From assembly GCA_963743635.1 (NCBI GenBank), contig CAVUQO010000003.1, forward strand, positions 754,595 to 818,594: a stretch of DNA of 64,000 nt, in the 5' to 3' direction. Numbering within the stretch: the first letter of the stretch is position 1; each line of letters begins with the position of its first letter. Under the pieces are notes generated by a model. That model did not search any database. It was not told where the DNA came from and saw only the letters and a program-made list of their open reading frames with translations. The translations under genes were made by a program, and so were the position numbers. Positions 40,527 to 48,131 of the stretch are shown one piece after another. This DNA comes from Candidatus Babeliales bacterium. GTDB taxonomy: Bacteria > Babelota > Babeliae > Babelales > Vermiphilaceae.

Positions 40527-41657
40527 TCATTCCGGAAACATATTTTCTAATGCCTTCTTATAACGATGCTCCGCAAGCGCTTGCGTGATCCATTCATCTT
40601 CATTGCATGCGTATCCCTTTTTGCGGCACCATCTCAAATAGTGCACCGCAAGTGGATTTTCAACGGTTAAACACGCATGAATACGCGCAAGGCCATCATG
40701 TGATCCCGTTGCAAGCAGTTCACCATCAGGCGAAAATGCCACTGACCAAACCCAATCACCATGCTTAATGGTATGCAACACTGCACCCGTAGTAGCCTTG
40801 ATTATCCGTGCATTATTATCACCTGATCCCGTTGCAAGCAGTGCACCATTAGGCGAAAATGCCACTGAAATAACCCAATCACCATGCTTAATGGTATGTA
40901 ACACCGCACCCGTAGCAGCTTCGATTATCCGTGCATTCTTATCACCTGATCCCGTTGCAAGCAGTTCACCATCAGGCGAAAATGCCACTGAACAAACCCA
41001 ATCACCATGCTTAATTTTATGTAACACTGCACCCGTAGTAGCATTGATTATCCGTGCATTATTATCACCTGATCCCGTTGCAAGCAGTTCACTATTGGGC
41101 GAAAATGCCACTGAATAAACCGAACCATAATGCTCAATAGTTTTGAAACGACCCCATATCTGAGGCATATACTCATCAATCATCTGCCTTGATGCTTCAG
41201 AAAGCGAAAGTGCTGGATGCTGCGCAGCATCTTCATGCAACGACCGCATTGACTCATCAGACACCAACCTTTTTGCCATTGCGCTCGCATATTTTTTTGT
41301 TGATATCGATGCGCCTAAATATATCGCTCCATCAAGCAAGGGCTTGGCACTCTCAATGCTCAAAGAATTATCATCATTCGCTTGCGCATCATCAGCATCA
41401 CGCACCAATCGCTTTAAAATTGCAGCGGAAATACATCCCAACGGAATCGGTTCACTTTGCGCCGCGTAATCAATCGCGCCATCCGCTGTTTTTGAGAATG
41501 CGTCCTCCACGACATCTTTAATCGTTCCGAACAACGGCACTTTACTTGCATCAAGCATTACCGTTTCATTATCATTGCTCTTCACTGCAAGCTGCATCGC
41601 CTGCAGATTACTCATTGAAAGTCCCAGCACAGCCATCAATATCACTATTCGTTTCAT
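40527..41657 (-). CDS. Secreted Skp1/BTB-like + WD40 protein (4 repeats)
   Basis: MKRIVILM signal peptide, Skp1-like domain, 41-aa WD40 repeats. Confidence 0.9.
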   Translation of the reverse strand: MKRIVILMAVLGLSMSNLQAMQLAVKSNDNETVMLDASKVPLFGTIKDVVEDAFSKTADGAIDYAAQSEPIPLGCISAAILKRLVRDADDAQANDDNSLSIESAKPLLDGAIYLGASISTKKYASAMAKRLVSDESMRSLHEDAAQHPALSLSEASRQMIDEYMPQIWGRFKTIEHYGSVYSVAFSPNSELLATGSGDNNARIINATTGAVLHKIKHGDWVCSVAFSPDGELLATGSGDKNARIIEAATGAVLHTIKHGDWVISVAFSPNGALLATGSGDNNARIIKATTGAVLHTIKHGDWVWSVAFSPDGELLATGSHDGLARIHACLTVENPLAVHYLRWCRKKGYACNEDEWITQALAEHRYKKALENMFPE

Positions 41658-41716
41658 ATTCTTTTTTCGATTACAAGGATATATAATTTTTTTTACCGTA
41701 TTCAACATGAATCTTC

Positions 41717-43333
41717 TCATTCAAGAATCATATTTTCTAGTGCCTTCTTATAACGATGCTCCGCAAGCGCTTGCGTGATCCATTCATCTTCATTGCATGC
41801 GTATCCCTTTTTGCGGCACCATCTCAAATAGTGCACCGCAAGCGGATTTTCAACGGTTAAACACGCATGAATTTGCGCAAGGCCATCATGTGATCCCGTT
41901 GCAAGCAGTTCACCATCAGGCGAAAATGCCACTGAACAAACACAATGATCATGCTTAATTTTATGTAACACTGCACCCGTAGTAGCCTTGATTATCCGTG
42001 CATTCTTATCATATGATCCCGTTGCCAGCAGTGAACCATCAGGCGAAAATGCCACTGAACGAACCCAATCACCATGCTTAATGGTATGTAACACTGCACC
42101 CGTAGTAGCATTGATTATCCGTGCATTATCATCACTTGATCCCGTTGCCAGCAGTGAACCATCAGGCGAAAATGCCACTGAACGAACCCAATCACCATGC
42201 TTAATGGTATGTAACACTGCACCCGTAGTAGCGTTGATTGTCCGTGTATTCTTATCATCTGATCCCGTTGCCAGCAGTTCACTATTAGGCGAAAATGCCA
42301 CTGAACAAACATAATCACCATGCTTAATGGTATGTAACACTGCACCTGTAGCAGCTTCGATTATCCGTGCATTCTCATCACCTGATCCCGTTGCCAGCAA
42401 TTGACTGTCAGGCGAAAATGCCACTGACCGAACACAATCACCATGCTCAATTTTATGTAACACTGCACCCGTAGTAGCCTTGATTATCCGTGCATTATTA
42501 TCACCTGATCCCGTTGCAAGCAGTTCACCATTAGGCGAAAATGCCACTGAGCGAACCCAATAACCATGCTTAATAGCATGCAACACTGCACCCGTGGTAG
42601 CGTTGATTATCCGTGCACTATTATCATCTGATCCCGTTGCCAGCAGTTCACTATTAGGTGAAAATACCACTGAGCGAACCCAATCACCATGCTCAATTTT
42701 ATGTAACACTTCATAGGTAGTAGCGTTGATTATCCGTGCATGACCTGATCCCGTTGCAAGCAGTTCACCATCAGGCGAAAATGCCATTGACAACACACAA
42801 TTATCATGCTTAATGGTGTTCAAAGTACCCCATATTTGAGGCATGTACTTACAAACTACCTGCTTTGATGCTTCAGAAAGCGAAAATGCTGGATGATCTT
42901 TTGTATTGTCATGCAACGACCGCATTGACTGATCCGATACCAACCTTTTTGCCATTATGCTCGCATATTTTTTTGTTGATATCGATGCGCCTAAATATAT
43001 CGCTCCATCAAGAAAGGGCTTTGCTCTCTCAATGGTTAAAGAATTATCATCATTCATTTGCGCATCATCAGTATCACGCATCAATCGCTTTAAAACTTCA
43101 GATGAGATATACCGCAGCGGAATCGGTTCTTTTTGTGCTCCGTAATCAACCGCGCCATCCGCTGTTTTTAGGAATGCGTTCTCCACGACATCTTTAATCA
43201 TTCCGAACAACGGCACTTTGCTTGCATCAAGCATTACCACCTGCCCATCATTGCTCTTCAATGCCAGCTGCATCGCCTGCAGATTACTCATCGAAAGTCC
43301 CAGCACAACCATCAATATCACTATTCGTTTCAT
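41717..43333 (-). CDS. Secreted Skp1/BTB-like + WD40 protein (8 repeats)
   Basis: Same architecture as 40527-41657. Confidence 0.9.
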   Translation of the reverse strand: MKRIVILMVVLGLSMSNLQAMQLALKSNDGQVVMLDASKVPLFGMIKDVVENAFLKTADGAVDYGAQKEPIPLRYISSEVLKRLMRDTDDAQMNDDNSLTIERAKPFLDGAIYLGASISTKKYASIMAKRLVSDQSMRSLHDNTKDHPAFSLSEASKQVVCKYMPQIWGTLNTIKHDNCVLSMAFSPDGELLATGSGHARIINATTYEVLHKIEHGDWVRSVVFSPNSELLATGSDDNSARIINATTGAVLHAIKHGYWVRSVAFSPNGELLATGSGDNNARIIKATTGAVLHKIEHGDCVRSVAFSPDSQLLATGSGDENARIIEAATGAVLHTIKHGDYVCSVAFSPNSELLATGSDDKNTRTINATTGAVLHTIKHGDWVRSVAFSPDGSLLATGSSDDNARIINATTGAVLHTIKHGDWVRSVAFSPDGSLLATGSYDKNARIIKATTGAVLHKIKHDHCVCSVAFSPDGELLATGSHDGLAQIHACLTVENPLAVHYLRWCRKKGYACNEDEWITQALAEHRYKKALENMILE

Positions 43334-46449: not shown

Positions 46450-46484
46450 ATTCTTTTTTCGATTACATGGATATATAAATTTTT

Positions 46485-48131
46485 TTACAGTATTGAACAT
46501 GAATCTTCTCGTTCAAGAATCATATTTTCTAATGCCTTCTTATAACGATGCTCCGCAAGCTCCTGCGCGATCCATCCCTCTCTTTTGCATGCGTATCCCT
46601 TCTCGCGGCACCATCTCAAATAGTGCACCGCAAGCGGATTTTCAACGGTTAAACATGCACAAATCCGTGCATTATTATCAGCTGATCCCGTTGCAAGCAG
46701 TTCACCATCAGGCGAAAATGCCACTGAACAAACCCAATCACCATGCTTAATGGTATGTAACACTGCACCCGTAGTAGCCTTGATTATCCGTGCATTATTA
46801 TCACCTGATCCCGTTGCAAGCAGTGCACCATCAGGAGAAAATGCCACTGAACAAACCCAATCACCATGCTTAATGGTATGTAACACTGCACCCGTAGCAG
46901 CTTTGATTATCCATGCATTCTTATCGTTTGATCCCGTTGCCAGCAGTTCATTATCAGGCGAAAATGCCACTGACCGAACACAACCACCATGCTCAATTTT
47001 ATGTAACACTGCACCTGTAGTAGCTTTGATTATCCGTGCATTATTATCACCTGATCCCGTTGCAAGCAGTGCACTATCAGGCGAAAATGCCACTGACCGA
47101 ACCCAATTATCATGCTTAATGATATGTAACACTTCACCCGTAGCAGCTTTGATTATCCGTGCATTCTTATCATCTGATCCCGTTGCAAGCAGTTCCCCAT
47201 CAGGCGAAAATGCCACTGAACAAACCCAATCACCATGCTTAATTTTATGTAACACTGCACCCGTAGTAGCGTTGATTATCCGTGCATTCTGATCATATGA
47301 TCCCGTTGCAAGCAGTGCGCTATCAGGCGAAAATGCCACTGAACGAACCCGATCACCATGCTTAATGGTATGTAACACTGCACCCGTAGTAGCGTTGATT
47401 ATCCGTGCATTCTTATCATCTGATCCCGTTGCAAGCAGTGCGCTATCAGGCGAAAATGCCACTGAACGAACCCGATCACCATGCTCAATTTCATGTAACA
47501 CTTCACCCGTAGTAGCTTTGATTATCCGTGCATTATTATCCCATGATCCCGTTGCAAGCAGTTCACTATTGGGCGAAAATGCCACTGAACGAACCCAATT
47601 ATCATGCTTAATAGTGTTCAAAGTACCCCATATCTGAGGCATGTACTTACAAACTACCTGCTTTGATGCTTCAGAAAGCGAAAATACTGGATGCTGCGCA
47701 GCATCTTCATGCAACGACCGCATTGACTCATCAGACACCAACCTTTTTGCCATTATGCTCGCATATTTTTTTGTTGATACCGATGCACCTAAATATATCG
47801 CTCCATCAAGCAAGGGCTTTGCTCTCTCAATGGTCAAAGAATTATCATCATTCGTTTGCACATCATCGGCATCACGCATCAATCGCTTTAAAACTTCAGA
47901 TGAGATATACCGCAGCGGAATCGGTTCTTTTTGCGCTGCATAATCAATCGCGTCATCGCTTGTTTTTGGAAATGCGTCCTCCACGACATCTTGAATCGTT
48001 CTGAACAACGGCACTTTGCTCACATCAAGCATCACCATCTGCCCATCATTTGTCTGCACTGCAAGCTGCATCGCGTGCAAATTTCCTGTTGCAAACCCCA
48101 GCACAGCCATCAATATCACTATTCGTTTCAT
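46485..48131 (-). CDS. Secreted Skp1/BTB-like + WD40 protein (8 repeats)
   Basis: Same architecture; GGAG SD before ATG 48131. Confidence 0.9.
   Translation of the reverse strand: MKRIVILMAVLGFATGNLHAMQLAVQTNDGQMVMLDVSKVPLFRTIQDVVEDAFPKTSDDAIDYAAQKEPIPLRYISSEVLKRLMRDADDVQTNDDNSLTIERAKPLLDGAIYLGASVSTKKYASIMAKRLVSDESMRSLHEDAAQHPVFSLSEASKQVVCKYMPQIWGTLNTIKHDNWVRSVAFSPNSELLATGSWDNNARIIKATTGEVLHEIEHGDRVRSVAFSPDSALLATGSDDKNARIINATTGAVLHTIKHGDRVRSVAFSPDSALLATGSYDQNARIINATTGAVLHKIKHGDWVCSVAFSPDGELLATGSDDKNARIIKAATGEVLHIIKHDNWVRSVAFSPDSALLATGSGDNNARIIKATTGAVLHKIEHGGCVRSVAFSPDNELLATGSNDKNAWIIKAATGAVLHTIKHGDWVCSVAFSPDGALLATGSGDNNARIIKATTGAVLHTIKHGDWVCSVAFSPDGELLATGSADNNARICACLTVENPLAVHYLRWCREKGYACKREGWIAQELAEHRYKKALENMILEREDSCSIL

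Follow-up and report, generated by a model that had tools for sequence, protein, structure and literature searches.

Known bacterial attacks on Skp1-Cul1-F-box (SCF) ubiquitin ligases supply an F-box protein that borrows the Skp1 of the host. Bacterial F-box effectors, including AnkB of Legionella, target the host SCF machinery according to the accessible part of PMC4209131, and the title of structure entry 5k35 names a bacterial F-box effector. A related system is the PEX1 family of Protochlamydia, in which an N-terminal BTB domain is joined to a C-terminal leucine-rich repeat (LRR) body; it has 73 members, expanded in a lineage-specific manner with tandem arrays, and was proposed to bring host targets to cullin ligases, with type III secretion also proposed (Domman et al. 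2014, PMC4209131, accessible part). The same portion of that article describes the Parachlamydiaceae as the only prokaryotes then known to have BTB domains, and gives WD40, LRR and ankyrin as partner domains of eukaryotic F-box and BTB receptors. For the phylum studied here, WD40, F-box and other ubiquitin-related proteins have been reported in the accessible parts of PMC4378268, PMC4776705 and PMC6561590. Here we analysed a window of 64,000 nucleotides from Candidatus Babeliales bacterium (phylum Babelota; assembly GCA_963743635.1, contig CAVUQO010000003.1) and describe an array of five minus-strand genes at positions 40527-48131, whose predicted products each join a putative signal peptide, a cut-down Skp1-family head, a helical linker, WD40 repeats and a helical cap. 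The locus resembles PEX1, as far as PMC4209131 could be consulted, in combining a POZ-superfamily head with a repeat body and in its lineage-specific tandem expansion in a protist-associated bacterium, here with 24 members and a TLC ATP/ADP transporter in the genome. It differs in that the PEX1 head is a BTB domain, its body LRR and its proposed route type III, whereas here the head is Skp1-like, the body WD40 and the leader of Sec type, and the two belong to different phyla.

The five genes lie head to tail as intact open reading frames (ORFs) and share the start MKRIV, from which the limits of the coding sequences (CDS) were set. Gene 1 (40527-41657, 376 aa) has the full architecture with only four WD40 units, while the same architecture carries eight units in gene 2 (41717-43333, 538 aa), seven in gene 3 (43369-44892, 507 aa), seven in gene 4 (44950-46449, 499 aa) and eight in gene 5 (46485-48131, 548 aa). 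Gene 3 was the copy used for modelling. An earlier reading of the letters without database searches (the sequence-only reading) had proposed such a five-gene array with repeat counts of 4/8/7/7/8 and the order N-terminal domain, helical linker, propeller and helical cap. The five CDS fit the span, the counts come out the same from Pfam stretches and from a 34-unit repeat model, and the order is seen in the AlphaFold2 model of gene 3. A signal peptide had also been claimed for each gene, and this stands by inspection and by a crude rule, as detailed below.

The N-terminal domain is truly homologous to Skp1; the resemblance goes beyond mere BTB-likeness and far exceeds chance. Taken singly, all five array heads match the Pfam family Skp1_POZ (PF03931) at 12.8-15.8 bits, under the curated cut-off of 21.9 bits, and a phmmer search against the PDB returned Skp1 in 12 of 12 matches at E 0.08-0.2; such single-copy sequence matches are suggestive but do not prove homology. 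We then relied on a family profile built from 20 of the 24 paralogues that an iterated profile search found over all ORFs of the 1.45-Mb source genome (three contigs, 85% complete). Against the PDB, this profile aligned with Skp1 residues 3-127 at E 7.3e-8. Of its 56 PDB matches, the top 30 were Skp1 or SKP1-like and most of the others Elongin-C, with no BTB protein in the whole set; likewise, none of the five N-terminal pieces matched Pfam BTB (PF00651), even at E up to 10. When searched against 1.84 billion representatives, the profile recovered 190 proteins at E up to 1e-3, among which 35 short matches are true Skp1 (Skp1_POZ in 35/35, the Skp1 C-terminal domain in 32/35), and hhalign of the family against these 35 gave 99.3% probability and E 1.7e-20 over 125 columns. 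At the level of profile scores, the array heads are bridged to the curated Skp1 family by relatives above the Skp1_POZ cut-off, namely a paralogue in the same genome (L018, 31.1 bits) and the proteins P0049 (24.6 bits; signal peptide, Skp1_POZ and WD40), P0048 (22.8), P0064 (82.3) and P0054 (108.3). The Skp1 likeness that the sequence-only reading had seen by eye, in a string that belongs to gene 4, is thus borne out as real homology; of the Pfam outcome it had called for, Skp1_POZ was matched below cut-off and BTB was not matched. Other searches added little: a word-index protein search returned the window's own protein alone (1 match among 428 candidates), the ESM Atlas gave no usable match, and a search for related loci with one N-terminal domain yielded no more than a weak match of 34 residues, in an unrelated metagenome-assembled genome.

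Structure prediction points in the same direction. For the domain of gene 3, AlphaFold2 (predicted local distance difference test, pLDDT, 88.1; predicted template modelling score, pTM, 0.83) predicts a Skp1-type BTB/POZ fold with helices H5-H6. In Foldseek the top matches of the head were all Skp1 chains at probability 1.0 and template modelling (TM) scores of 0.6-0.75, and an exhaustive structural search with VIA-align placed first 1ldk_D, the Skp1 of the Cul1-Rbx1-Skp1-Skp2 structure (Z 10.5, root-mean-square deviation, rmsd, 2.6 over 110 residues). The Skp1-homologous POZ core occupies residues 21-131 of gene 3 (44500-44832, minus strand) and includes the A-x-Y-L helix. Skp1 has 26 columns with conservation of 70% or more, and 14 of these keep the Skp1 residue in half or more of the 20 family members; the I-P-L turn is kept, and so is the H5 helix motif, with A, Y or F, and L each in 20/20. 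Helix H5 of Skp1 faces Cul1. The homology ends after helix H6, the hhalign alignment stopping at column 130, and the conserved C-terminal columns of Skp1 are kept in 0-1 of 20 members; the F-box-gripping part of Skp1 has therefore been lost. Correspondingly, a Pfam search at E up to 10 found the Skp1 C-terminal domain (PF01466, the F-box-binding helices H7-H8) in none of the five N-terminal pieces. Compared with eukaryotic Skp1 (PF03931 plus PF01466), the bacterial proteins thus share a homologous POZ core with its I-P-L and A-x-Y-L motifs, and their mature N-terminus begins within a few residues of the Skp1 start, whereas they carry a signal peptide, are fused instead of stand-alone and are without the PF01466 helices.

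In place of Skp1 H7-H8, three short linker helices follow the POZ core (gene 3 residues 132-167, 44392-44499, minus strand), with structural likeness to the start of the 3-box/BACK region of BTB-Cul3 adaptors. When the whole model of residues 1-153 was searched with VIA, the BTB plus 3-box adaptors KBTBD2, KLHL22 and SPOP (8h3f_I, 8k8t_K, 3htm_A) aligned at Z 9.0-9.1 over 126-128 residues, near the tool's background for helical models, and vaccinia A55 in complex with Cul3 at Z 8.1. Since these values lie near both the background and the Skp1 score (within about 1.5 of it), we take the 3-box/BACK likeness as resemblance, not membership.

Gene 3 has as its body a WD40 propeller with seven blades, which belongs to the highly repetitive bacterial type (residues 168-452, 43537-44391, minus strand). 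Pfam WD40 stretches number 4/8/7/7/8 in the five genes, with E from 2e-36 to 3.6e-72, and the repeat model resolves them into 34 units of 41 aa each, one of 39. In the full-length model of mature gene 3 (pLDDT 92.9, pTM 0.87), the POZ domain and helices extend to residue 142, 28 strands form a closed seven-blade propeller, and C-terminal helices follow at 438-450, 459-465 and 470-478. The best propeller matches were 2ymu (Z 48.2) and the Thermomonospora protein 5yzv (Z 47.3), with rmsd 1.0-1.1 and identity of 36-41%, as against 25-31% identity for WDR5 and G-beta. These bacterial proteins have near-identical repeats with few variable positions, as the array does; going by their entry titles and aligned ranges alone (2ymu, 1-577; 5yzv, 449-738), neither gives a sign of a Skp1-like head or an export signal. 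Since the propeller is nearest to bacterial WD40 proteins, the chimera seems to pair a head of eukaryotic origin with a body of bacterial type. Among the 50 chains listed for the full gene 3 model, a list that one domain fills, there was no F-box/WD40 or BTB-Kelch chain; 49 of the 50 align only from residue 129 on, and one small nuclear ribonucleoprotein (snRNP) chain reaches back to 95.

The repeat scaffold is nearly invariant over the 34 units. Entropy is highest at position 22 (2.72 bits) and position 6 (2.13), then at 39, 24 and 30, then at 3 and 4. Position 22 directly precedes the Asp that is conserved in the b-c turn, and positions 4 and 6 open strand a; we take positions 4, 6 and 22 to be the WD40 top-face 'hotspot' positions that line the WDR5 peptide pocket. 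Over 28 internal repeats, the ratio of nonsynonymous to synonymous substitution rates (dN/dS) was 1.56 at positions 4, 6, 22 and 24 and 0.63 at 33 other codons, the former being indicative only and biased upward. Gene 1, having only four units, cannot close a seven- or eight-blade propeller alone; either recombination has deleted units from it, or it has to pair. Each chain ends in a cap that is conserved family-wide; in gene 3 it is a three-helix cap with a disordered tail (residues 453-507, 43372-43536, minus strand), and its L, W and W are invariant across the family. We considered whether the cap could be a displaced F-box and found no support for this in sequence, as 0 of 15 caps matched the F-box families of Pfam at E up to 10, and a cap profile searched against the PDB found the single chain 9hnh_A at E 1.1 and no F-box protein.

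The proteins are predicted to be exported. The signal-peptide call was made by inspection and a crude rule (a regular expression). By inspection, the array leader consists of MKR, a 10-residue hydrophobic run (IVILMAVLGL) and SMSNLQA followed by MQ, which correspond to n, h and c regions with a small residue at -1; in gene 3 this Sec-type leader spans residues 1-20 (44833-44892, minus strand), with the predicted cut between NLQA and Met. By the crude rule, a signal-peptide-like N-terminus with a junction of small residue plus Met occurs in 20/20 members of the own genome that have the full N-terminal domain, in 52/73 family representatives and in 0/35 canonical Skp1. The junction itself is strikingly conserved, a small residue and then Met (WRMGAM before E or Q, or NLQAM before Q). 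It may serve as a signal for cleavage or sorting specific to the lineage, or else be an ancestral start codon retained. Two secretin genes about 5 kb apart (C3:63572-64048 and C3:68298-68780) and, elsewhere in the genome, two ATPases of the type II secretion system/type IV pilus (T2SS/T4P) type could provide an outer-membrane route for Sec-exported effectors. Many signal-peptide effectors in Dependentiae are thought to reach the host, as the accessible parts of PMC4378268 and PMC6561590 put it.

The array is one part of a larger family. The genome has 24 ORFs with the domain, which take up 2.8% of its DNA, and tandem arrays occur at no fewer than four loci, among them C3:1314-8194, C2:109168-114924 and C3:664150-669730 besides the one described here. 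In a quick tree, the five array genes form one clade (Shimodaira-Hasegawa-like approximate likelihood ratio test, SH-aLRT, 99), and the other members of the genome fall into several clades that also contain proteins from other sources; this grouping indicates that the expansion predates the array. The tree, with weak deep support (SH-aLRT 71) and signal-peptide labels from the crude rule, shows clustering and not the number of acquisitions. Across the phylum, Skp1_POZ exceeds the cut-off in 45/261 genomes, as compared with 0/14 control genomes, so the module is common there; at E up to 0.001 it is found in 29/145 genera, and our own family profile matches 21/261 genomes. Nearly all Skp1_POZ matches in the phylum sit in ORFs of 300-1,276 residues and few in shorter frames. 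Pfam WD40 is present in 47/74 of the closest representatives, and Skp1_POZ is above the cut-off in 10 of the 17 Skp1-like ORFs from other genomes of the phylum, among those listed. The bodies joined elsewhere to a head of signal peptide and Skp1_POZ include WD40 (L027), LRR (L028), ankyrin (L037) and undefined regions. Where relatives have a public name, it is only 'WD40 repeat protein' (3/15 listed members). Unusual tandem-Skp1 proteins also turned up: P0064 and P0054 have two or three Skp1_POZ domains after a signal peptide, and P0065 is a single leaderless chain with four copies of Skp1_POZ and three of the Skp1 C-terminal domain.

As to possible partners inside the bacterium, neither F-box (PF00646), F-box-like (PF12937) nor cullin had a match in its genome, which is 85% complete, and the Skp1-like head therefore has no detectable bacterial partner. 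The TLC transporter, together with ankyrin ORFs (17 Ank_2 matches, 14 over the cut-off), points to host dependence.

In our leading interpretation, to which we give a probability of about 0.5, the array encodes exported, host-directed mimics of the substrate-receptor arm of a cullin-RING ligase (CRL) that dock on a host cullin. The mature protein would leave by Sec and would then have to pass the outer membrane, for which the secretin-type machinery encoded in the genome may be the route. Its Skp1-like head would dock on the N-terminal domain of a host cullin, most likely Cul1 as judged by family, and the propeller would present host proteins for ubiquitination with neither host Skp1 nor an F-box protein. 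The 24 paralogues would then form a repertoire of target specificities, with recombination keeping the copies alike while their binding faces diversify. Such a combination of adaptor and receptor in one chain gains support from the WD40, LRR and ankyrin relatives and from the repeat variation at positions 4, 6, 22 and 24. It would share with bacterial F-box effectors the target machinery, host SCF, and the supply of a foreign substrate receptor; those effectors need host Skp1, whereas the present proteins bring the Skp1 part themselves, with no F-box detected in them or in the genome. With FBXW receptors they have the WD40 propeller in common, while an F-box motif was found neither in the genome nor in 15 caps. 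A wider proposal, which we hold tentatively and at somewhat less than even odds, is that a phylum of protist parasites made Skp1, and not the F-box, its effector scaffold: Sec-exported heads without the F-box grip, on WD40, LRR or ankyrin bodies, would dock on host Cul1 and form F-box-independent CRL1 ligases, with targets diversified at the top face of the propeller in an arms race with the host.

Several results weigh against the cullin-docking interpretation. The Asn of the Skp1 motif A-A-N-Y-L, which we take to lie at the Cul1 interface, is present in 33/35 Skp1 and in 1/20 family members. Each of the five window copies stays below the Pfam cut-off on its own, and the propeller is closest to bacterial WD40 proteins and not to F-box/WD40 receptors. 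The dN/dS of 1.56 is inflated because its positions were picked partly for their variability, and the scaffold value of 0.63 is not strongly purifying, so that constraint appears relaxed. A Sec leader by itself delivers to the periplasm only, and delivery to the host cytosol is assumed by analogy. Finally, frameshifts split three of the 24 members (24508-26180 in the window, C3:263-2174 and C3:751777-753653).

The same Skp1 homology and export signal would also suit a decoy or inhibitor, whose head binds host cullin or F-box proteins non-productively and so blocks SCF while the propeller localises or sequesters a partner; a divergent head without the conserved Asn could bind in a geometry unfit for catalysis. 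The loss of the F-box-binding positions (0-1/20 kept, with the alignment ending at column 130) makes the sequestering of F-box proteins unlikely, however, and a blocker would not need 24 paralogues with diversified propellers, nor LRR and ankyrin bodies. We consider such a decoy quite improbable. Docking on a cullin other than Cul1 would be expected if the POZ core and the 3-box-like linker helices acted together on a Cul3-like protein, as in BTB-Kelch adaptors. The Cul3 adaptors (KLHL, KBTBD, SPOP) do combine a cullin-docking POZ domain, a helical extension and a substrate domain in one chain, the structure of the poxviral BTB-BACK-Kelch protein vaccinia A55 with Cul3 has been solved (6i2m, by its entry title), and the head and linker of gene 3 superpose on such proteins at Z 8.1-9.1, near the tool's background: the whole 1-153 model aligns with KBTBD2, KLHL22 and SPOP at the upper end of that range and with A55-Cul3 at the lower. 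These Z values, though, are within about 1.5 of Skp1 and near the background for helical models, the 56 profile matches are headed by Skp1, followed by Elongin-C, and include no BTB protein, and Pfam BTB is unmatched at E up to 10; moreover, the adaptors have BTB heads with Kelch or MATH bodies, as opposed to a Skp1-family head with WD40. A Cul3-like partner is accordingly very unlikely in our judgement.

It is also conceivable that the proteins have nothing to do with ubiquitin, and that the POZ fold is the oligomerisation module of periplasmic, surface or extracellular WD40 scaffolds, for example in host adhesion or envelope assembly. A Sec leader puts the proteins outside the cytoplasm, BTB/POZ folds often form oligomers, and the structural matches include many BTB entries that are dimers, pentamers or hexamers; gene 1 with its four blades could close a propeller only by pairing, and the propeller is of bacterial type. 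All this has to be set against a head that belongs specifically to the Skp1 family, with Skp1 ahead of every BTB in both sequence and structure, a module confined to a host-dependent phylum with 0/14 control genomes, and partner domains that are those of eukaryotic substrate receptors. We regard the scaffold explanation as unlikely, and continue to favour docking on a host cullin.

With regard to novelty, an amoeba-associated bacterium that expands an effector family of POZ heads and repeat bodies is already known, and the new element is a Skp1-family head, cut down and fused to repeat bodies with Sec leaders, which we have not found in print. The sequence-only reading knew of no characterisation of the architecture in bacteria; this has to be narrowed, as single-chain families of POZ plus repeat effectors exist (PEX1, in the accessible part of PMC4209131), to the Skp1 head on a WD40 body, for which we found no publication in this lineage. 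The architecture search across the phylum that it had recommended yielded the 45 genomes and the WD40, LRR and ankyrin fusions given above. In a literature search that left subscription journals and supplements outside its reach, we found no published Skp1-family head fused to WD40, LRR or ankyrin with a Sec leader, in this phylum or any other, and the accessible parts of PMC4378268, PMC4776705 and PMC6561590 mention no Skp1 fusion. In the present proteins the adaptor itself has been captured, trimmed and joined to the receptor. Should the head dock on a cullin, this would be a different and more autonomous route to redirect host ubiquitination, and the natural single-chain design would interest those who engineer degraders. 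Likely target-binding residues can be read off the few variable positions of the 34 near-identical repeats.

Some further features of the window concern the family and its surroundings. The ORFs of the array, all on the minus strand, run from 40527 to 48197 with limits 40527-41720, 41717-43384, 43369-44892, 44950-46500 and 46485-48197, and they are flanked by a saccharopine-dehydrogenase-like gene (38800-40263) and an isoleucyl-tRNA synthetase gene (48236-51259). A sixth, degenerate family member lies on the plus strand at 24508-26180 in two overlapping frames (24508-25284 and 25158-26180); the signal peptide, a degenerate propeller and the cap are kept and the first POZ strands are missing, and it is probably a pseudogene or a frameshift error. 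At the array edge, a 111-aa ORF (38357-38692, minus strand) has a similar leader (VCAM before QQ), one WD-like stretch (SPDGTVIAT) and no Pfam match, and may be a family remnant. A 592-aa ORF on the plus strand (36258-38036) combines a signal-peptide-like start, a low-complexity middle rich in Pro, Gly and Tyr, and a Lys/Glu-rich region, with no Pfam family; it may be another exported protein. The long antisense ORFs within the array (43634-44353 on the plus strand, 45149-45955 and 46750-47292) were rejected as genes, because the repeats generate open frames. GC skew across the array (40000-48000) falls to between -0.20 and -0.22, with both flanks at about -0.07, presumably reflecting the base composition of the coding sequence that is repeated there.

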